Below are positions 2,972-61,826 of a stretch of DNA of 64,000 nucleotides, piece by piece. The position numbers and the translations under genes were made by a program. The DNA lies in the NCBI GenBank assembly GCA_947601495.1, contig CANQGE010000006.1, positions 8,190 through 72,189 on the forward strand. Reading direction: 5' to 3'. Below the pieces are notes generated by a model. That model saw nothing but the letters and a program-made list of their open reading frames with translations, ran no database searches and was not told the origin of the DNA. Each line of letters begins with the position of its first letter. The first letter of the stretch is position 1. This DNA comes from an uncultured Clostridia bacterium (GTDB taxonomy: Bacteria; Bacillota; Clostridia; TANB77; CAG-508).

Positions 2972-4945
2972 ATGGAAGATTTAGTAGAAAGCATATTAGA
3001 TTATGTAAGAGCAGATTATACAGACTATGCCATAATGATAAATGGTGAATGGGGTAGTGGAAAAACTTATTTTTGGAATAATAAAATAAGAAATAAAATA
3101 GATTCATTATCTTTAAATGGAAAAAAATATTCAACTATATATATGTCTTTATATGGAATTTCTAACTTAGAAGATATAAGCAAAAAAATATTTATTGAAA
3201 CTACTCAATTAATGGATAAAGACATGAAAAAATATATGATGGCACATGATACAACATCTATTCCAGAGTATGCTAAAACAGGGCTAGATATGGCACATCT
3301 TTTTGGAGCAAAACAAACTGGAGATAAATTTGATTATGGTCAATTTTTCTCAACAGATGATAAGGTTTTATGCTTTGATGACTTAGAGAGAGCAAACGTA
3401 GATGTTATAGATATTTTAGGATATATTAACAATTTTGTTGAGCATGACCACATTAAAACAATTATTATTTGTAATGAAAAAGAGCTTGCAACAAAACTTA
3501 AAAGCTCTAACTTAGAGATGAAAACTTTTATAGCAACATATCTTTTAGATAAAGAAGGAACTCTTTTAAATGCAGATAAACCACTAGTTGAAAAAATTAC
3601 TGAGAAAATTGAATATATATTTGACAAAGCAAATGATTATGAAAGAATAAAAGAAAAACTTATTGGTGAAACTTTTGAATATGCTCCACAGTTTAGCTAT
3701 ATAATTAATGGACTTTTAATGAGATATGAGTCAAATCCAGATTTAATTAGATTTTTAAGAGAACACACAAATTTAATTACAAATACTTTTATAAAATCTG
3801 GAACTAGAAATTTAAGAATTTTGAAACATGCTTTAAACGATTTCAAAAAGATTTATGAAACAGTAAATAAATTTTATCCAAACACAAATTTAAGAGTTTT
3901 ACAAACTATGCTAATATTTACAATTGCTGTATCTTTTGAAATAAAAGCAGGAAAAATTACTAAAGATAAATTTGTAAATATTAATTCAAATGAAGAATAT
4001 AAAGCAATATTAGTTTCTTCAAGAGTTTTAATGGATAATAGACAATTTTATATAAAAGAATTCGATAACAACTATTATTTCAATTTTAAATCAGAATATA
4101 GATTCTTCAAATTCATAGAAATGTATGTAAGAGACAGAATATTTGATATGAAAGTATTCAAACAAGATATGGAAATGATAATTGAAACAATAGATACAGA
4201 AAAACTACCAGGATATAAAAGACTACTTATTGAAGAATATTGGAAAATATCAGATGACCAATTTCCAGCAGTTATTGAGGAAGTAATTGAAAATGTGGAA
4301 AATGGAGATTTAACACTTATTGAACTTGTTAAATTATTTGCATATTTTAGCTATTTTTCAAGAAAAAATTTAATTCCTTATGATATGCCAACAATAAAAG
4401 AAAAATTTTTAGAAGGAATGGATTTAGTTGCAGAAAAATCAGAATATTGTAGCAATATATCAGAAGAACTTTCAAGAATAGGAATTGATGTTGGCGAAGA
4501 CATGAAAGATATTTTAAAACATTTCCATGAACTTAATAAAGAATTAAAGAAAAAAATGTATAAAGATAAAGCAGAAGAAATATTTAAATGTATACCAATG
4601 AAAATGGAAGTATTTTATGACAAGTTTACTTCTGAATGTATGGAAAAACCAATATTAAATTATTATGATACTTATAAAATGGTACAGAGAATTACTTGTG
4701 CAAGCAATGAAGATATAGTTAAAATAAAAGAAATGCTATTAGATAGAGCAAGAAAAAATAAATCACAATTGTCATCAGAATTAGATTTTATGGTAGATTT
4801 AAAATCAGAGCTTGAAAAATATTATAAAGATAAAGAAACAAGTATAAAAACAGTTATGATAAAAGAATTTACAGAAGATTTGCAAACAATAATAGATATT
4901 TATAGTGATATGCCAAAGAAAACTATATTTACAAGAAAAAAGTAG
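2972..4945 (+). CDS. KAP-family P-loop NTPase-like protein
   Basis: Walker A GEWGSGKT near N-terminus and KAP-type Walker B CFDDLER; AAAGGAGG RBS; 657 aa with long helical C-terminal region. Confidence 0.65.
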   Translation: MEDLVESILDYVRADYTDYAIMINGEWGSGKTYFWNNKIRNKIDSLSLNGKKYSTIYMSLYGISNLEDISKKIFIETTQLMDKDMKKYMMAHDTTSIPEYAKTGLDMAHLFGAKQTGDKFDYGQFFSTDDKVLCFDDLERANVDVIDILGYINNFVEHDHIKTIIICNEKELATKLKSSNLEMKTFIATYLLDKEGTLLNADKPLVEKITEKIEYIFDKANDYERIKEKLIGETFEYAPQFSYIINGLLMRYESNPDLIRFLREHTNLITNTFIKSGTRNLRILKHALNDFKKIYETVNKFYPNTNLRVLQTMLIFTIAVSFEIKAGKITKDKFVNINSNEEYKAILVSSRVLMDNRQFYIKEFDNNYYFNFKSEYRFFKFIEMYVRDRIFDMKVFKQDMEMIIETIDTEKLPGYKRLLIEEYWKISDDQFPAVIEEVIENVENGDLTLIELVKLFAYFSYFSRKNLIPYDMPTIKEKFLEGMDLVAEKSEYCSNISEELSRIGIDVGEDMKDILKHFHELNKELKKKMYKDKAEEIFKCIPMKMEVFYDKFTSECMEKPILNYYDTYKMVQRITCASNEDIVKIKEMLLDRARKNKSQLSSELDFMVDLKSELEKYYKDKETSIKTVMIKEFTEDLQTIIDIYSDMPKKTIFTRKK

Positions 4946-5823: not shown

Positions 5824-5965
5824 TAAATTTTTAAGGTTAATTTAAGAATCATCGTATAAAATTATTTCATACTAAAGAGAAGGGAGAGATGCGATGGTTC
5901 TTTAATTTTATGTACAAAAAGAAGAATAACAAAAAAATAAATAAAATCCCCAAATAAATAAAAAA

Positions 5966-6000
5966 AGAAGGTTCTTATTTAATAAGAATCTTCTTTTTTT
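5966..6000 (+). terminator. rho-independent terminator
   Basis: AGAAGGTTCTTATT / AATAAGAATCTTCT stem followed by T7. Confidence 0.75.
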
Positions 6001-6005
6001 CGCTT

Positions 6006-6173
6006 CTTATAGTACATATATATTATTTTTCTAAGTTACTTGTTGTCGCAATCTTTTTATTAAAAATCTTAAATTTAAAATAATAATAATAAAGATTGCT
6101 CCAATCGCCCTTCGCTTACGCTTCGGTTGGTCGCTACGCGTAACTTTAAAAAATAATATATATGTACTATAAG
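6006..6173 (+). repeat. structured intergenic repeat, copy 1 (34-bp palindromic arms around a conserved GC-rich core)
   Basis: Arms CTTATAGTACATATATATTATTTTTCTAAGTTAC (6006-6039) and their reverse complement (6140-6173). Core TTGTTGTCGCAATCTT...AAGATTGCTCCAATCGCCCTTCGCTTACGCTTCGGTTGGTCGCTACGCG is nearly identical to 47922-48013 and 50745-50834. Confidence 0.88.
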
Positions 6174-6325
6174 AACGTTATATATAAATATTATGAAAAA
6201 CTATAAAATTTATTATTTATAAACTCTATAAATTTATATAAAATACCAGAATTTAAATTTACAAAATATCTTTACAAATATATGTAAAATTGATAAAATA
6301 TGAAAAAATTTAAAGGAGATAAAAA

Positions 6326-25154: not shown

Positions 25155-25366
25155 CGTAAATTATATGAATTGCGTTGAAAAAGAGGAAATATATAATAAA
25201 AAAATTTAAAGTGAGTTTGTGCCAGTGAGAAACAAATAATTTTTAATATATTTTGGAACTTTGGAGCAATATTAATTAAGGTGGGTATTTTTAAAATACC
25301 AATTAGGGTGGAACCGCGTAAGTAGAACTTACGTCCCTAGCTTTATGCTAAGGATGTAAGTTTTTT
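25155..25366 (+). promoter_or_regulatory. T-box leader (glycine, specifier GGA) with terminator
   Basis: Promoter TTGACT(25120)-17-TAAAAT(25143); TTGCGTTGA...AGTGAG stem I elements; UUUGGAACUUUGGAGCA specifier context (GGA 25255-25257); T-box AATTAGGGTGGAACCGCG 25301-25318; terminator hairpin 25328-25366. Confidence 0.88.
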
Positions 25367-25442
25367 GTTTTGCAAAAAACTTATCCTTAGAAAATATGAA
25401 GAAAGCCATATCTTCATAAAAAATAAAGAGGAGGTTTTAATT

Positions 25443-26825
25443 ATGGTAGAATCAATGGAAAAAATTGTAAGTTTATGCAAGTCTAGAGGATATATATATC
25501 CTGGTTCAGAAATTTATGGAGGTTTAGCAAATACTTGGGATTATGGCCCTTTAGGAGTGGAATTAAAAAATAATGTAAAAAAAGCCTGGCTTAAAAAATT
25601 TGTGCAAGAAAGCAAATACAATGTAGGCTTAGATACAGCAATACTTATGAATCCAGAAACATGGGTAGCATCTGGACATGTTGGAGGTTTTTCAGATCCA
25701 CTTATTGATTGCAAAGAATGCAAAACAAGACATAGAGCAGATAAACTTATTGAAGAATGGGCACATGCAAATGGAAGAGATATGATTGCTGATGGAATGT
25801 CAGATGAAGCAATGGTTAATTTCATAAATGAAAATAAAATAGTATGCCCAAGTTGTGGAAAATTAAATTTCACATCAATTAGAAAATTTAATTTAATGTT
25901 CAAAACATTTCAAGGTGTAACAGAAGATTCTAAAGCAGAAATATTTTTAAGACCAGAAACTGCACAAGGAATATTTGTAAACTTTAAAAATGTACAAAGA
26001 ACAACAAGAAGAAAAATACCAATGGGAATTGCTCAAATTGGTAAAGCATTTAGAAATGAAATAACACCTGGAAACTTTACTTTTAGAACAAGAGAATTTG
26101 AGCAAATGGAGCTTGAATTTTTCTGCAAACCAGGAACAGATATGGAATGGTTTGACTATTGGAGAAAATATTGCAAGCAATTCTTATTAAATTTAGGAAT
26201 TGAAGAAAAGAATATAAGATTAAGAGACCACTCTCCAGAAGAATTAGTTTTTTATAGCAAAGGTACAACAGACATAGAATTTGCTTTCCCATTTGGATGG
26301 GGAGAATTATGGGGAATTGCTGATAGAACAGATTATGATTTGTCAAGACATATGGAACATTCAAAACAAGATTTAACATATTTAGACCCAGAAACAAATG
26401 AAAAATATGTGCCATACTGTATTGAACCATCACTTGGTGCAGATAGAGTAACACTTGCATTTTTATGCAATAGCTATTTTGAAGAAGAGGTAGGAGAAGG
26501 AGATGTTAGAACTGTACTTAAATTACATCCATTTTTAGCACCTTATAAAGTTGCTGTTTTACCATTATCTAAAAAATTATCAGAAAAAGCAGATGAAGTA
26601 TATACAGAGCTTTCAAAACATTTTATGTGTGATTATGATGAGGCAGGAAGCATAGGAAAAAGATATAGAAGAGAAGATGAAATAGGAACACCTTATTGTG
26701 TTACAATAGATTTCGACACATTAGAAGATGGATGTGTTACAGTAAGATATAGAGACACTATGGAACAAGTAAGAATTAAAATTGAAGAAGTAAAAAATTA
26801 TATAGAAGAAAAAATAAATTTCTAA
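25443..26825 (+). CDS. glyQS: glycine--tRNA ligase (dimeric GlyQS type)
   Basis: [34 protein letters not shown], class II motifs; start moved to ATG 25443 behind AAAGAGGAGG. Confidence 0.93.
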
Positions 26826-31341: not shown

Positions 31342-31429
31342 TGGTGCAGATGGCCGGAATCGAACCGGCACGGATTATTCGTCCGCAGGATTTTAAGTCC
31401 TGTGCGTCTACCAGTTCCGCCACATCTGC
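31342..31429 (-). tRNA. tRNA-Leu (anticodon UAA)
   Basis: Reverse complement GCAGATGTGGCGGAACTGGTAGACGCACAGGACTTAAAATCCTG + long variable arm + GGTTCGATTCC...CTGCACCA; hairpin terminator CCTGAGA..TCTCAGG at 31321-31338. Confidence 0.93.
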
Positions 31430-31561: not shown

Positions 31562-31603
31562 CTATTTTTTTTAAAATAAAGAACCCCTCCCGTTTGGGAG
31601 AGG
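31562..31603 (-). terminator. terminator of the 67-aa GC-rich ORF
   Basis: CCTCTCCCAAACGGGAGGGG hairpin on the minus strand followed by a T-rich run. Confidence 0.55.
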
Positions 31604-31631
31604 AAAAGAAATAGATTCTTTTTGGAAAAAC

Positions 31632-31835
31632 CTAGCAGTAAAAGGATCTGCATATCATCCGCTCGTTCAACGGCTTTTTGACGGTGAAGACGGCGCCATC
31701 TTTGTAAATGGCATAGACCTTGTCTTCTGAATCGGTCGGAATTTCGACCATGCATACTGCTTCGAGCACGGTCAATTCTGGGCCACCTTGCCGTTTGAAT
31801 TCGGATACGGCTTGCTTAGCTAGACTTTTTTCCAT
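31632..31835 (-). CDS. hypothetical small protein, 67 aa, compositionally foreign
   Basis: AAGGGGGA RBS 6 nt before ATG 31835; GC-type codons; no family recognised. Confidence 0.6.
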   Translation of the reverse strand: MEKSLAKQAVSEFKRQGGPELTVLEAVCMVEIPTDSEDKVYAIYKDGAVFTVKKPLNERMICRSFYC

Positions 31836-31929
31836 GATCAATCCCCCTTAATCGATGATAGTTCCTGTTGTACTCGGCCGGTGCGATTGAGTTACTGTAC
31901 TAGTACGTTACTACGTACAAAGTACTACT

Positions 31930-47695: not shown

Positions 47696-47727
47696 TTTAA
47701 AAAAGTAGCTATATGCTACTTTTTTTG
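47696..47727 (+). terminator. rho-independent terminator
   Basis: AGTAGC / GCTACT stem extended by an A-run and T7. Confidence 0.7.
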
Positions 47728-47740
47728 TTTTGCACATTTT

Positions 47741-47943
47741 TTTAAAATAATTTTATTTAAAAAAATATTTTTATATAACGATTCTGTCTCTTAATGTATT
47801 TTATCTTTTTAATAAGTAACTTGGTGTCGCAATCTTCTTTTTTTAAAATAATTTTATTTAAAAAAATATTTTTATATAACAATTTTGTCTCTTAATGTAT
47901 TTTATCTTTTTTATAAGTAACTTGGTGTCGCAATCTTTTTTTT
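47741..47943 (+). repeat. two-unit tandem duplication (about 101-102 bp) of the left arm plus left core of repeat copy 2
   Basis: TTTAAAATAATTTTATTTAAAAAAATATTTTTATATAAC(G/A)ATT(C/T)TGTCTCTTAATGTATTTTATCTTTT..ATAAGTAACTTGGTGTCGCAATCTT occurs at 47741 and again at 47843 with a few substitutions. Confidence 0.88.
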
Positions 47944-48052
47944 TTTTTGAAATTAATTAAAAGGAAGATTGCTCCAATCGCCCTTCGCTTACGCTTCGGT
48001 TGGTCGCTTACGCGTTACTTATTCAAAAGATAAAATACATTAAGAGACAAAA
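47884..48052 (+). repeat. structured intergenic repeat, copy 2
   Basis: Arms 47884-47921 / 48014-48052 are reverse complements (about 36 of 39); core 47922-48013 is near-identical to copies 1 and 3. Confidence 0.88.
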
Positions 48053-48095
48053 TCTTTGAAAAAGAAATATAAAAAAATATTTAAATAAAAAAATA

Positions 48096-48145
48096 TTGAC
48101 AAAAAGAAGTATTTTATTTATAATGAATATATGAACAATTATTCA
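48096..48145 (+). promoter_or_regulatory. cadC-cadA promoter with dyad TGAACAATTATTCA (candidate ArsR/SmtB operator)
   Basis: TTGACA (48096-48101)-17-TATAAT (48119-48124); imperfect dyad 48132-48145 just downstream. Confidence 0.5.
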
Positions 48146-50628: not shown

Positions 50629-50665
50629 AAACCCTAATTGAATTTTATATTCAATTGGGGTTTTA
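50629..50665 (+). terminator. rho-independent terminator after cadA
   Basis: AACCCTAATTGA / TCAATTGGGGTT stem followed by TTTT. Confidence 0.75.
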
Positions 50666-50708
50666 TGATTTATGTCTATTATGTTTGAAATTCTTATAAC
50701 TTGCAATT

Positions 50709-50869
50709 CCTTATAAAGATTAAAATATATTATTATTGAATAACTTGGTGTCGCAATCTTCTTTTTTTTAAATAAAGAAAAAGGAAGATTGCTCCAATCG
50801 CCCTCCGCTTACGCTTCGGTTGGTCGCTTACGCGTTATTCTATAATAATATATTTTAATCTTTATAAGG
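50709..50869 (+). repeat. structured intergenic repeat, copy 3
   Basis: Arms CCTTATAAAGATTAAAATATATTATTATTGAATAA (50709-50743) and reverse complement (50835-50869) with one mismatch; core 50745-50834 is near-identical to copies 1 and 2. Confidence 0.88.
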
Positions 50870-51036
50870 ACTCTATTATAAGAATTGGAAAATATAAGGA
50901 CTATATTATAAGAATAGAAAAATTATAAAATATAAGAATTTTAAAAATAAAACTTCAAATGTTAAAAATGTTGATTTTTTGGGAATTTTAAGGTATAATA
51001 TTAAAGTATTTTAAATTGTGGAAGAGGAAAAAAATT

Positions 51037-57964: not shown

Positions 57965-58035
57965 AATTATTTCCTTTTACAATTGATATTAATATAATAG
58001 CATAAATTAGGCATAAATAAAAGAGAATAAGCCAT

Positions 58036-58081
58036 AAAAAACAAGCGCCGGGGATTTACTTTTTAAGGTAAAGCCCCGGCT
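58036..58081 (-). terminator. terminator of the 97-aa GC-rich ORF
   Basis: GCCGGGG / CCCCGGC stem; on the minus strand followed by GCTTGTTTTTT. Confidence 0.65.
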
Positions 58082-58090
58082 TATCCGGTT

Positions 58091-58384
58091 TTAGCACCAA
58101 ACACTAATTAGGTGGACGATGGAGCATATTCCGGAAATGACGAAGATTAGGATTCCTATGGATGTTATCGGGCAACGTCGGAAAGTTATCTTTTTGTTAT
58201 ACGCCAACACCACATCCGCGCGTTCGGCAAGCGCAAAGGCGATGGTCCAGAAAAAGGACGAGACGGCAACAGACAGCGCCCTGCTTGATTCGGGAAAAGA
58301 AATTATGAAGAAGTATCCCAGAGCAATGCTGAATAAAGTTGCCGCAACATAGCGCAGGAGTTTCTTGCTGATTCTAAGCTTCAT
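58091..58384 (-). CDS. hypothetical small membrane protein, 97 aa, compositionally foreign
   Basis: AGGAGG RBS before ATG 58384; three predicted TM segments; preferred over the antisense ORF 58119-58352, which lacks an RBS. Confidence 0.6.
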   Translation of the reverse strand: MKLRISKKLLRYVAATLFSIALGYFFIISFPESSRALSVAVSSFFWTIAFALAERADVVLAYNKKITFRRCPITSIGILIFVISGICSIVHLISVWC

Positions 58385-58665
58385 GTAAAACGCCTCCTAT
58401 TGTTCGCACATTGCATATGCCATAAAATTAGGAACTAAACCATGTCAACCAACCCCCTCAAATTATTGATATCTATATAAAATAGAGCACATAGCTCTTT
58501 ATAGTATAGTGGAATGGATTTTTTTCTAAACAGGTTACCTTTTGGTATTTTAACACCAAAAGAGTAAAAAGTCAATTTATGTAAACATTTTAAAATTAAA
58601 TATTGGAAAAAATTAAAAATAATGGTAAAAGAAAAAATTAAAAAAAGCGAGTCATATATGAAAAA

Positions 58666-58694
58666 TTGATTTATAAGCTTTTTTTTGATATAAT
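58666..58694 (+). promoter_or_regulatory. promoter TTGATT-17-TATAAT (TG-extended)
   Basis: TTGATT 58666-58671, TGATATAAT 58686-58694; hairpin AACAGAAC/GTTCTGTT follows in the 5' UTR (58719-58746). Confidence 0.55.
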
Positions 58695-58783
58695 ATATAT
58701 AACCACTGGTTGGAGGTAACAGAACAAAAATTGGAGTTCTGTTAGAATTAGGCTATCGACGACGGAAGAAAGGAAGATGAAGA

Positions 58784-59593
58784 ATGGCCAAGATTTGTCG
58801 GGTTAGCAACTGGAACTACATCATGGAGAATGGAGGAACTTGCAGGAAGTGCCCCAACTGGAAGAACTGCCCCAGCTGGAAACGACGGATAAGGAATCAG
58901 CAGGCTCAGAAAGCCACAATGAGGGCACTCGCCGTGATTTTCGTCATCTTGGTTGTGGTTCTCGGACTGCTGCTGGGATTGGCGATTAAGACGGTTGCCT
59001 CGCACATCTTTGCGCCCGAGCCTCACGTGCTCATGCCCCAAGCGGATTTCAGACCCGCTGTCACCCAGGCTCCGCAGATACGCGAATTCAGGACGCAGGA
59101 GGAACAGGAAATCTGGGAGATGGTTGAGGAACTCATGCCAATTCCGTCTCTTAGTCCGGAAGGACCGAGTGAAGCTTACTACTATCGACTGGACGCTGAC
59201 GAAAAGATGTGGATAGCAAAGTTGGTCTTTGTTGAGGCAAAAGATCTCACGTTCGAGGAGAAGGTGGCAGTTGCCAGCGTGGTGATAAATCGCTACTTCT
59301 ATGCGGACGAGCGATTCAACAGAGAGTCAGTAAGGTCTGTTGTTATTCAGCCAGGACAGTTCAAGAGTGTAGCAAACGTTACCACGGACGACGTAAATTC
59401 TGTACCAGACTGCATGAGGGCTGTTCAAACGGCGTGCAAGGGATGGGATCCTACTAGGAGAAAATTCCCGAATGGTGCGAAGTTTTTCTTCTTCGACGCT
59501 GTTATCGATTGCGTCGACGCTGCAAAACTTCAGAATGCGAACTACTACTCACTGGGAAGACTGCACTTTTCTGAAGACCCAATCGACTACTAA
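58784..59593 (+). CDS. membrane-anchored SleB/CwlJ-family cell wall hydrolase (Hydrolase_2) with Cys-rich N-terminus
   Basis: WIAKLVFVEAKDLTFEEKVAVASVVINR, VVIQPGQFKSV, GWDP aligns with B. subtilis SleB catalytic-domain motifs. N-terminal CRVS..CRKCPNWKNCPSW followed by TM helix ALAVIFVILVVVLGLLLGLAI. Confidence 0.8.
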   Translation: MAKICRVSNWNYIMENGGTCRKCPNWKNCPSWKRRIRNQQAQKATMRALAVIFVILVVVLGLLLGLAIKTVASHIFAPEPHVLMPQADFRPAVTQAPQIREFRTQEEQEIWEMVEELMPIPSLSPEGPSEAYYYRLDADEKMWIAKLVFVEAKDLTFEEKVAVASVVINRYFYADERFNRESVRSVVIQPGQFKSVANVTTDDVNSVPDCMRAVQTACKGWDPTRRKFPNGAKFFFFDAVIDCVDAAKLQNANYYSLGRLHFSEDPIDY

Positions 59594-59656
59594 TTCTAAA
59601 GCAAGCGACGGAGCAGGGCGAATACCCAGCACCGTCGCTTACTGCGTTTATAAAAT

Positions 59657-59685
59657 TTTACAAGTTAACGTAAACGTGATATAAT
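59657..59685 (+). promoter_or_regulatory. promoter TTTACA-17-TATAAT (TG-extended)
   Basis: TTTACA 59657-59662, TGATATAAT 59677-59685; preceded by hairpin AGCGACGG/CCGTCGCT 59604-59639. Confidence 0.55.
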
Positions 59686-59768
59686 ATATACGTAGCCTGT
59701 TTAATGGTCTCCATGTTGGCTTTCACTTCAAGTGATTGCAACAAATAATTTTAAGGAGGGTTGTGACC

Positions 59769-60551
59769 ATGGCCAAGACTACTTTGAAACTCGTAGAACT
59801 GATGCGAACAGGCTCAATCAGGATCTACGACGGTATGGAAATCGTTGTCCCACAGCTCAACCGGACCGACGAGATTCACCTAGGTGGCTCGGACAAGCCT
59901 ACCGGGGCCTACAGCATTCGCAATGGATCAGTCGCGTTTTGCTGGGATGGTGACCTGTACGTTTGCCCTGACACCGCCTCGAACGTAACCGTACTGCGTG
60001 AAGCAGGATTCGAACGACGCTACTTCGACGTGCCACTTTCTAACGGAGAGTATCCGGCTAGGGAGGCAAAAAAATGGCAAGAACTGCTCAACAAGGCTGG
60101 AGAGGAGGATTCTCGAGAATATGAGATGATGTGCAGAAGGTTCTGCAACCAGAGAGGCATAATGCCCATTCCCAGAGAAGAGCTTTCGCTGTGCCTCGAG
60201 GTGCCGAAAACCGGAATACTCGTGAAGCACCCGTACTACAGCGATGTCGTTTACCCCATGTTGCTGGGAAAGCACTTCGGTAAGAGGGAACAGGACCTGT
60301 TGGGACGCTACAGCGTCATTGGTGACTTTTTGGCCTACGTGCACGTAGACGGAAAAACCTACGTAACACGTCGAGGCTTTGAGGCAGAGCTCAAACATTT
60401 CGGATATAGGAGGGATCATTTCTGCGTTCCGTTCTCGAATGGTGAGAAGATTGTCGACCCTGTCTTAGCCGAAAGGTGGGAGGAATTGCTCAAGCGAGAA
60501 CTCGAGTGGGAGCTGATGTGCTCGAACGCGAGCAAGAACGACAGAGGCTGA
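59769..60551 (+). CDS. hypothetical protein, 260 aa, two homologous half-domains, compositionally foreign
   Basis: AAGGAGG RBS before ATG 59769; internal duplication (see findings); no family recognised. Confidence 0.7.
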   Translation: MAKTTLKLVELMRTGSIRIYDGMEIVVPQLNRTDEIHLGGSDKPTGAYSIRNGSVAFCWDGDLYVCPDTASNVTVLREAGFERRYFDVPLSNGEYPAREAKKWQELLNKAGEEDSREYEMMCRRFCNQRGIMPIPREELSLCLEVPKTGILVKHPYYSDVVYPMLLGKHFGKREQDLLGRYSVIGDFLAYVHVDGKTYVTRRGFEAELKHFGYRRDHFCVPFSNGEKIVDPVLAERWEELLKRELEWELMCSNASKNDRG

Positions 60552-60581
60552 CGCCAATGGTCTTGATGTGCATTGCATGTC

Positions 60582-60622
60582 AAAAAAGACGGAGAATGGG
60601 AAACCAATCTCCGTCTTTTCTT
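60582..60622. terminator. bidirectional terminator between the GC-rich ORF and tRNA(CAU)
   Basis: AGACGGAGA / TCTCCGTCT stem with an A-run before and a T-run after. Confidence 0.75.
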
Positions 60623-60699
60623 TGGTGCGCCCTCAAGGATTCGAACCTTGGACCAACCGGTTATGAGCCGGTTGCTCTGACCAACTGAGCTAAGGGCGC
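60623..60699 (-). tRNA. tRNA with CAU anticodon (elongator Met or lysidine-modified Ile2)
   Basis: Reverse complement GCGCCCTTAGCTCAGTTGGTCAGAGCAACCGGCTCATAACCGGTTGGTCCAAGGTTCGAATCCTTGAGGGCGCACCA; lacks the initiator features (no 1:72 mismatch, no GGG/CCC anticodon stem). Confidence 0.9.
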
Positions 60700-60724
60700 A
60701 TCTTTTATTTCTAAGACAAGACTT

Positions 60725-60753
60725 ATTATAAACGATTGAGATTAATATGTCAA
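60725..60753 (-). promoter_or_regulatory. promoter of tRNA(CAU)
   Basis: Minus strand TTGACA (60748-60753), 17-bp spacer, TATAAT (60725-60730). Confidence 0.65.
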
Positions 60754-60911
60754 GAGAATTTAAAAAAAATCTTGTTTTATTTGACACAATAGTTTTTTTA
60801 AATATAAACTTAAAATAGCAATAATAGCAAAGTTTAATATTGACAAAAATAAATTAAGGTTATAAAGTTGTTTTACAAAATAATAAAGTATTTAAGAAAT
60901 GGAGAATTTTT

Positions 60912-61826
60912 ATGATATTAATAAATGTAACAGTAGCTCTGTTTATAATAGGAGTTGTTCTTTTAGGAATAAGTTTAGTAAATAAAAATAAAAAGTTAAA
61001 AATAGCAGGAATATCAATTTTAATTCTGTTAGTTACAGGATTTATAGCATTTGTTTTTTATGCACTTTATGAAGAAGATCAAGAAATGATTAATCAATTT
61101 GGAACAGGGTATGAAAATAGTTCAGATTATATGAACTCTCTTGATAACACTAATAATATTGATAATCCAAATACTCAGAACAATGAGAATGTTCTTGATA
61201 GTACAAATACTTTTGACAATGTTAATTCTTTTAATGATGCGAATACTACAAATAATGAATTACCAGTTGAATATTCAGGAATAGTTCAAAATATTGGGAA
61301 TTCTTCAATTGAATGTGGACCACTTAAATCATTTTTAACAAATTTAATTTCATTAAATGAAGAAACAAAAATTTTAAATTATTTAACTAATAAAGAAATG
61401 AAATTAGAAGATATAAAGCAAGGAGACTGCATTAAAATAATAGGAACCAAACTAGAACCAAATAATGATTTAGAAAAGATTTATGCTAAAGAAATATATG
61501 TTTATACAAAAAATGAAATAAAAAATGAGGCTGGAAAATATATAGTAGATACTTATAGAATAGATGATTCAAGCATTAGCTATTTTAATGTGGATTCATC
61601 TGGAGAAGGATATATAATTTGTGAAATAAATGTAGAGAATTTTTCTTATCCAATAAAACTAAATGTTAACAAATCTACAGAAACATTTTTAGGATACTCA
61701 ATGCATTTACAATCTAACTATGGCTACATTCCACATGAAATGTGCTGGATTACAATGGACACAAAAGTAGAAGATATAGATAATATAAAAGGATATGTAA
61801 AAATGATTGAATATATAGCAGATTAA
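60912..61826 (+). CDS. hypothetical membrane-anchored protein, 304 aa
   Basis: GGAG RBS; two N-terminal TM helices; Asn-rich linker; no family recognised. Confidence 0.55.
   Translation: MILINVTVALFIIGVVLLGISLVNKNKKLKIAGISILILLVTGFIAFVFYALYEEDQEMINQFGTGYENSSDYMNSLDNTNNIDNPNTQNNENVLDSTNTFDNVNSFNDANTTNNELPVEYSGIVQNIGNSSIECGPLKSFLTNLISLNEETKILNYLTNKEMKLEDIKQGDCIKIIGTKLEPNNDLEKIYAKEIYVYTKNEIKNEAGKYIVDTYRIDDSSISYFNVDSSGEGYIICEINVENFSYPIKLNVNKSTETFLGYSMHLQSNYGYIPHEMCWITMDTKVEDIDNIKGYVKMIEYIAD

Follow-up and report, generated by a model that had tools for sequence, protein, structure and literature searches.

A lineage-specific palindromic repeat of rabbit-gut Clostridia with a conserved core that inverts between its arms

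A 64-kb stretch of DNA (hereafter, the window) from a spore-forming, uncultured Clostridia lineage of the rabbit gut carries a repeat, in three full copies and one half copy, that belongs to a real, lineage-specific and previously undescribed family. Each full copy is a DNA palindrome with arms of at least 35 nt, interrupted by an asymmetric core of ~90 nt that consists of a small hairpin and a GC-rich block. The element is an insertion that some genomes carry and others lack at orthologous intergenic sites, and its core, together with the inner part of the arms, repeatedly inverts between the arms. Judged from their sequences, the arms are homologous between copies and evolve in concert. We assign a probability of roughly 0.55 to the reading that the element is a MITE-like, non-coding, non-autonomous, lineage-specific palindromic repeat in which recombination or template switching between the arms both inverts the core and homogenises the arms. 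What is new within the palindromic-repeat or MITE kind is the inside-out pattern of conservation combined with the flip-flop core.

In the 64-kb window there are three matches, with at most one mismatch, to the conserved right half of the core (positions 6092-6135, 47965-48008 and 50785-50828), against a chance expectation of 0 in 100 shuffles. The left half, TTGGTGTCGCAATCTT, occurs four times; the fourth occurrence, at 47821-47836, was overlooked in the preliminary description and is part of a tandem duplication that precedes copy 2 (Table 1). Apart from this extra half copy, the three copies with an asymmetric core and self-complementary arms are as that description had them, and so are the pairings inside the core, of GCAATCTT with AAGATTGC and of CCAATCG with CGGTTGG. 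The direct repeat reported in the core, TCGCTTACGC, is present twice in copies 2 and 3, and in copy 1 the second unit reads TCGCTACGC instead. The GC-rich block of 31 nt, TCGCCCTTCGCTTACGCTTCGGTTGGTCGCT, is near-invariant across species.

The size of the repeat ranges from ~165 bp up to ~260 bp, in a window with a GC content of 27.6%, and arm complementarity in the window copies continues, more weakly, out to 53-80 nt per arm. The arm limits of copy 2 were taken by direct reading of the sequence, the aligner having given longer alignments (85-87% over 53 nt, and 50/57). The arm mismatches of copy 1 are T:T and C:A, 8-9 nt from the core; the arms of copy 3 differ by one T:T mismatch only, 8 nt from the core. 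No inverted repeat of comparable quality was found elsewhere in the 64 kb.

Table 1. Parts of the repeat copies in the window
Feature	Positions	Strand	Description
Copy 1, left arm	6004-6039	+	36 nt; reverse complement of 6140-6175 at 34/36
Copy 1, asymmetric core	6040-6139	+	inner hairpin 6048-6099 (GCAATCTT...AAGATTGC); GC-rich, near-invariant 31-nt block 6105-6135
Copy 1, right arm	6140-6175	+	36 nt
Copy 2, first unit of tandem duplication	47737-47837	+	101 bp; flank, second left arm 47781-47820, left core half TTGGTGTCGCAATCTTC 47821-47837
Copy 2, proximal left arm	47882-47921	+	40 nt; complementary to 48014-48053
Copy 2, core	47922-48013	+	GC-rich block 47978-48008
Copy 2, right arm	48014-48053	+	40 nt
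Copy 3, left arm	50708-50744	+	37 nt; 97% complementary to 50834-50870
Copy 3, core	50745-50833	+	inner hairpin with 17-bp stem; GC-rich block 50798-50828
Copy 3, right arm	50834-50870	+	37 nt

An exact 22-mer of the core was found at 25 loci in GTDB species genomes, all of them in rabbit-gut Clostridia MAGs with the sole exception of one Clostridium sp. MAG. The nearest public sequences to the window are likewise Lapin MAGs and ENA rabbit assemblies. A profile search of the window and the 25 loci recovered 36 copies, 23 of them in MAG Lapin-015_bin83, which extends the family well past the three copies first described. All complete canonical copies carry their own self-complementary arms of 34-40 nt, with a mean identity of 94% within a copy and 66% between copies. 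All 36 copies are intergenic and none lies within a long ORF. The distant variants L012, L014/L016, L010/L024, L030 and L031 retain the 31-nt block, TCGCCCTtCGCTTACGCTTCGGTTGGTCGCT, and in these variants the inner hairpin has changed in sequence and kept its pairing. The CCAATCG/CGGTTGG helix is lost in L014/L016, L030 and L032, where the block sequence is retained. A scan of metagenomes added no more than two distant variants (L030 and L031). Assemblies of metagenomes break at the core of the element.

Since an exact 22-mer from the 31-nt block was used to find the copies, part of the conservation of that stretch follows from the search itself; over the 32 core positions that the 22-mer does not cover, copies are 93% identical to one another, and the orthologue L032 has three changes within the 22-mer. 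The window and five variant loci gave no match in Rfam at the gathering score, and at E up to 10 copies 1 and 3 gave only generic hairpin matches, far under threshold. Blastn of the core against plasmids and phages returned no match, an exact scan of viral contigs 0 matches, and a literal search for the core sequence in papers 0 matches, in agreement with the earlier claim that the family had gone unrecognised.

Orthologous loci were gathered through TrpS homologues and contig look-ups. In a sister species with 93% TrpS identity (L041/L042/L049), site 2 measures 147 bp and lacks the element, the upstream terminator running directly into the arsR/cadC-cadA operon promoter, a conserved TTGACA-17-TATAAT. 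The empty site 3 of the same species measures 186 bp. Neither arm was found at the empty sites 2 and 3, and the arms therefore come with the insertion. For these two sites we rejected on the same ground, the empty sites being without both arms, an origin of the arms as an inverted duplication of flanking DNA and an origin as a pre-existing target palindrome. At a fourth site, which lies downstream of a GntR gene, strains that share protein P0121 carry the element and two sister species (L064-L075) do not. This presence/absence polymorphism supports the earlier suggestion of a foldback-type mobile element.

L013a and L013b are paralogues separated by 5 kb within a single genome; they have the core in common, as well as both arms over all 39 nt, but their flanks are unrelated. 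In the subfamily formed by L013a, L013b, L018 and L023, similarity stops sharply at AAGCTCTTA / TAAGAGCTT. No direct repeat that would mark a target-site duplication is evident at these ends, a call that the AT-rich palindromic flanks make unsafe, and the element has fuzzy outer ends. A search of 435 kb for arm palindromes standing alone, with no core between them, found none.

Both orientations of the core were observed at five of seven orthologous sites, where the flanks are collinear and the element is reversed; this supports the inverted-repeat-flanked invertible segment put forward as one hypothesis in the preliminary description. The inverted segment comprises the core and ~10-15 nt of the inner arm. 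In the pair L032 and L034 the flanks are 99.5% identical, and the inverted segment is identical save one SNP; in the pair L008 and L059 flank identity is 98.8%. Inversions also separate L045/L046 (98% TrpS) from copy 3 of the window, L017 from copies 2 and 3 of the window, L013 from L018 and, in a divergent subfamily, L014 from L016. Independent assemblies of the species of L032 and L034 repeat both orientations, with L032, L033 and L035 on one side and L034, L053 and L054 on the other. The two unflipped sites are those of copy 1, compared with its orthologue L003 in MAG Lapin-015_bin83, and of L010, compared with L024. Copy 3 has the same orientation in the same-strain contigs L026 and L027 and is absent in L041, and same-strain contigs from 2-4 samples, which are consensus assemblies, show a single orientation each.

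Asymmetries of the inner arms move with the core, which places the exchange points inside the outer, perfectly matching part of the arms. An assembly artefact is an unlikely cause of the flips, since assembly k-mers and reads both exceed the arms in length and several samples gave the same result. Spontaneous and enzyme-driven inversion would both randomise orientation at these levels of divergence, and the data fit either.

The arms were compared across 20 independent copies. At positions 1-24 from the core, identity between copies is ~0.70 and pairing within a copy is 0.97-0.98, except at positions 7-12, where the two values are ~0.72 and 0.84. At positions 25-34 identity between copies is 0.50-0.56 and pairing within a copy 0.85-0.95. 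Positions 13-24 combine 66-71% identity between copies with 98% complementarity within a copy; shuffled arms, the control for the between-copy values, are ~40-42% identical. Small indels 6-10 nt from the core degrade ungapped per-position pairing statistics, and gapped comparisons were used instead. The consensus of the inner arm is roughly TATATAnnTTTTATtAGTGAC, its innermost 6 nt (AGTRAC) are conserved, and an outer-arm consensus CTCTTAnG is common to about half of all copies. The arms had been described as near-perfectly complementary within each copy and almost completely different between copies. The first statement stands; the second does not, as the inner 24 nt are ~70% identical between copies against ~40% when shuffled, and the contrast with MITEs that was built on it proves overstated, the arms being homologous between copies.

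In four-way alignments of 10 related pairs, 71 arm differences are mirrored in both arms and 52 are unmirrored, where independent decay would yield almost no mirrored changes. Single conversion events can be seen among orthologues: an A:C mismatch common to L045, L046 and L017 is corrected in the window. Roughly half of the copies have a T:T mismatch at ~7-10 nt from the core; a 3-bp TTA target duplication was considered as its source and rejected, as it fits ~7/20 copies and fails for window copy 3 and L020. With inner arms ~30% diverged between copies and yet almost fully paired within a copy, homogenisation is required. Homologous recombination between the arms would homogenise them and invert the spacer. 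Template switching between inverted repeats is described in PMC8604942 as causing the same two effects, arm homogenisation and spacer inversion. Because the inversion of the core indicates that arm recombination or template switching occurs, the selection on a hairpin that had been invoked for the preserved pairing is not needed.

The MITE-like reading joins these observations in a single process. Inversion would arise when the two arms undergo homologous recombination or when replication switches template from one to the other, and the same events would copy one arm onto the other. Within a copy the arms would hence keep 95-98% complementarity, and between copies they would drift apart to 50-70% identity. 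The 31-nt block may be held by selection across species as a recognition site, which is suggested by its conservation in copies found with an exact 22-mer of the block. A putative protein that recognises the block, encoded elsewhere, would propagate the element, and ectopic conversion together with selection for propagation would keep the core and the block constant. In some copies the outermost 10-15 nt of the arms may be host terminator stems, with the element inserted in the loop.

Several observations fit this reading poorly. No transposase or recombinase domain was found among the window ORFs (Pfam, all 56 ORFs), and an all-against-all blastp of the locus ORFs found no multi-copy protein in the fetched loci. 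An autonomous parent, with the core halves split by a gene, was sought and rejected, only the truncated copy L015 and the tandem half copy at copy 2 having been seen. The lack of a clear target-site duplication and the fuzziness of the outer ends count against the MITE-like reading, as does having the centre conserved and the ends variable, since ordinary MITEs have it the other way round. The recurrent T:T mismatch is not explained by random homogenisation. Finally, the outer arms of L008a and L008b, taken as host terminators split at the loop, would explain complementarity without homogenisation.

This last point leads to an unlikely alternative, in which the mobile unit is the core with ~20-24 nt of its own inverted repeats and inserts in the loops or centres of host palindromes, for example intrinsic terminators. 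The outer arms would then be target DNA, with no homogenisation needed. L008a and L008b have subfamily-specific inner arms in common (TATATTrTTTTATaAGTACC), and their unrelated outer arms resemble terminators right after stop codons (AAAAAGAAAGTAGC...GCTACTTTCTTTTT and AAAAGACAGTGATTG...CAATCACTGTCTTTTT). Identity between copies falls beyond ~24 nt from 0.70 to ~0.5, inner-arm mismatches are inherited along with the core, long AT-rich terminator palindromes are present in these genomes, and A-tracts and T-tracts lie beside several copies, all as insertion into palindromes would have it. The orthologues downstream of the GntR gene, compared with terminator-loop insertion in mind, have unrelated palindromes in the sister species, an outcome that favours neither reading. 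However, the empty sites contain no matching palindrome, though they come from fairly distant species. Each window copy has a separate, intact upstream terminator. The arms of L013a and L013b are identical over 39 nt, and the CTCTTAnG consensus belongs to the outer arm. Inner arms that are 30% diverged between copies and 98% complementary within them still require homogenisation.

Quite unlikely, in our view, is a set of programmed invertons, in which a dedicated recombinase would recognise the conserved inner arm and core and flip ~25-30 loci, changing the directional signal of the core. Both orientations do occur at flanks of 99.5% identity, repeatedly in independent assemblies; 35-40-nt inverted repeats around ~90 nt are of typical size; AGTRAC and the core are conserved; and there is a hotspot of mismatch or mutation at a fixed 7-10 nt from the core. 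Like the Mpi loci of Bacteroides fragilis and the RecV switches of Clostridioides difficile, the element is a segment of ~100-200 bp bounded by 20-40-nt inverted repeats; closely related strains show it in either orientation (at five of the seven orthologous sites), and there are many loci per genome. Known multi-locus inverton sets have a common inverted-repeat sequence and differing interiors, whereas here the interior is shared and the repeats differ between loci, their common consensus being AGTRAC only. The window encodes no recombinase, a cognate invertase being absent from its 56 ORFs, and the core contains no convincing promoter or terminator that could face a gene. The host promoters lie downstream of the element, so that a flip should not switch trpS, cadCA or pyrBI; no link to a controlled gene was found, and many copies lie between convergent genes. 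Same-strain assemblies from 2-4 samples show one orientation, and spontaneous inversion between 35-nt repeats would also randomise orientation over these divergence times.

A more speculative proposal, which we consider improbable, is that the 31-nt block is the landing site of a structure-dependent enzyme, such as a hairpin-recognising recombinase or an HUH-type nuclease, that acts on the whole extruded palindrome. It would either flip the core in a programmed manner at ~25-30 loci or mobilise the hairpin, with host terminator stems gained on insertion into hairpin loops, and the fixed T:T mismatch would be part of the signal. If true, this would add to the known modes of bacterial DNA mobility or phase variation one with a substrate set by structure and not by arm sequence.

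The gene context of the copies bears on a possible regulatory role. Within the window all copies have the same orientation and lie between a terminator and a promoter, as first described; the other copies vary in context and orientation. They occupy tandem, convergent and divergent intergenic regions, many of them between convergent genes, and in tandem contexts 12 copies are co-oriented and 7 anti-oriented. The host terminators of the window (5960-6000, ~47700-47727 and 50629-50663) and its host promoters (~48096-48124 and 50971-50999) are all external to the elements. In the sister species, where the sites are empty, the two promoters that precede arsR/cadC and trpS have been retained, and no consensus promoter or terminator was found inside the core. 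With the native terminators and promoters outside the element and these promoters retained where it is missing, the proposed link to pyrBI, cadCA and trpS is not supported. Copy 3 folded as DNA reaches -41.9 kcal/mol (z = -10.7), an extreme stability that arises because the element is a palindrome; the + strand core folded as RNA gives z down to -4.4.

A structured-RNA reading, with the element serving as sRNA, cis-regulatory leader or hairpin for RNase III or mRNA stability and with RNA-level selection keeping the arms paired, is very improbable: the very stable predicted fold, the G:T positions of the inner hairpin and of CCAATCG/CGGTTGG that are wobble pairs on the + strand only, and the inner hairpin pairing kept with different sequence in L012, L014/L016 and L031 stand against a core orientation that is free relative to neighbouring genes and flips between strains, the loss of the CCAATCG/CGGTTGG helix in distant variants with the block sequence fixed, the absence of an Rfam covariance-model match, of a fixed strand relative to a transcription unit and of a promoter or terminator of the core's own, a 37-bp perfect stem far beyond the needs of RNA function, and the ability of an arm-homogenising DNA palindrome to give covariation without any RNA. 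The suggestion of an RNA gene, or of an attenuator of pyrBI, cadCA or trpS, is not supported.

Among known repeats, the element resembles Correia/NEMIS of Neisseria, ERIC/IRU of enterobacteria and RUP of pneumococcus in being 100-250 bp long, non-coding, multi-copy and intergenic, in its long arms around a centre that make one long hairpin, in its presence/absence polymorphism and in having no enzyme of its own. Correia/NEMIS, ERIC/IRU and RUP have conserved terminal repeats, sharp ends and a target-site duplication. Unlike them, the present element has a conserved centre (~93%), arms that are 50-70% alike between copies and fuzzy ends, and no duplication or parent IS was found. It shares with MITEs a short, non-coding, multi-copy and dispersed nature, inverted repeats and presence/absence polymorphism; terminal repeats that are conserved between copies and match the ends of a parent IS or transposase are the MITE feature not seen here.

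Two further classes were considered and rejected. REP/REPIN sequences are conserved imperfect palindromes of 20-40 nt, often GTAG- or CGTC-tagged, that occur singly or as inverted doublets in genomes with a RAYT; in the present element the palindromic parts are AT-rich and copy-specific, the conserved block is non-palindromic, and the window has no Y1 transposase. Integron attC sites have conserved R''/L''...L'/R' end boxes (GTTRRRY core) around a variable centre and form cassette arrays beside intI. Here, conversely, it is the centre that is conserved and the ends that vary; the GTAAC/GTTAC junctions do not match GTTRRRY, the copies are scattered, and no integrase is encoded in the window.

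Other likenesses concern shape or process. The flip/flop hairpins of parvoviruses (AAV ITR) also combine a long stem, two small internal hairpins and an asymmetric interior in two configurations, a likeness of shape only. AAV ITRs are the ends of a linear ssDNA virus and are made by hairpin transfer in replication, whereas the structure here is internal to a bacterial chromosome. Quasipalindrome template-switch mutagenesis, as presented in PMC8604942 and PMC7202029, combines the arm homogenisation and spacer inversion that are both seen here. The process has been described for short repeats in genes or reporter constructs and is not known to shape a whole dispersed family; the spacer of 90 nt here is long. 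The GC clusters of yeast mitochondria (PMC4478555) are short, GC-rich, partly palindromic mobile blocks that lie between the genes of an AT-rich genome and have no known enzyme. They differ from the present element in being eukaryotic and organellar, in lacking sequence similarity to it, and in having neither long AT-rich self-complementary arms nor a flip-flop core.

If the MITE-like reading is true, the family offers a natural experiment on how inverted repeats evolve in concert, replicated at dozens of independent loci, in which one process inverts the spacer and homogenises the arms. It would also show that compensatory "covariation" and a highly stable fold can arise without RNA function, which calls for caution in RNA-motif discovery in AT-rich genomes. 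Read-based or deep-learning tools would flag the element as an inverton. The block that is invariant across species points to a putative DNA-binding or DNA-processing protein in an uncultured gut lineage.

Exchange of cores between copies by ectopic conversion is partly shown. Orthologues with identical arms differ in the loop of the inner hairpin, and non-orthologous copies share loop types. The copy at the GntR site in L058 matches its neighbour L008a in loop type, in the CGTTTGG variant and in the inner right arm, which indicates ectopic conversion. The same L058 copy carries a 19-bp tandem duplication between its two TCGCTTACGC repeats. Rearrangement breakpoints cluster in the inner hairpin, as in the half-duplication of copy 2 and the truncated copy L015, and the 101-bp duplication at copy 2 is polymorphic among near-identical strains, being present in L046 and absent from L045.

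Independent metagenome contigs repeatedly terminate within the core of the palindromic element: some start and others end there (see table). The element thus fragments assemblies of this Clostridia lineage. In L058, a strain carrying a copy at the site downstream of the GntR gene, the GC block contains a 19-bp tandem duplication, CGCTTACGCTTCGTTTGGT x2 (positions ~1940-1990), which arose between both TCGCTTACGC direct repeats. This duplication shows that the element core undergoes slippage.

Repeats are also found around the arms. In L003, the orthologue of copy 1 (window ~6004) has a tandem array directly beside its left arm, at 3231-3495. The array comprises four units, each about 47-52 bp long; every unit contains TTCTTATAG and an AT palindrome, and the four repeats are missing in the window. 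Many element copies show several occurrences of the motif TTCTTATAR (reverse complement YTATAAGAA) within or near their arms; those to the left are direct, those to the right inverted. This sequence may act as a subterminal binding motif or a favoured target, or may be no more than a common AT-rich word.

The GntR-downstream sites of two sister species (L064 1855-1925 and L068 1880-1950) are empty, and hold unrelated nested AT-rich palindromes. Their arms measure 14-15 bp with spacers of 31-47 nt, and they lack the GC block. These palindromes may be ordinary terminators or relatives of the element without the core.

Positions of features in the window, and loci and contigs sharing a feature
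Feature	Position or locus	Strand	Context
TTCTTATAR occurrences	50684-50935; flanks of L001, L006		
Contigs starting inside element core	L026, L028, L029		
Contigs ending inside element core	L036, L047, L048, L061-L063		
Class-II aminoacyl-tRNA synthetase gene	25365-26825		T-box-like sequence immediately upstream
tRNA	31345-31429	-	beside 841-bp gap
ORF, Hydrolase_2 cell-wall hydrolase domain (Pfam)	58784-59593		GC-rich island
tRNA	60626-60699	-	adjoins GC-rich island

Elsewhere in the window, CCAATTAGGGTGGAACCGCGTAAG... at 25299-25343 resembles the conserved T-box motif; Rfam gave no T-box there at gathering score. A patch of ~330 bp at roughly 50% GC (31574-31907) lies inside an 841-bp gap. 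The ORFs of this region reach only 67-69 aa, a Pfam scan of one of them (31632-31841) gave no match, and the patch may be the leftover of a foreign gene. A larger GC-rich island spans 58000-61000 (40-49% GC versus 27.6% window-wide); its ORF at 59736-60551 is without a Pfam match. This island is probably DNA gained horizontally.
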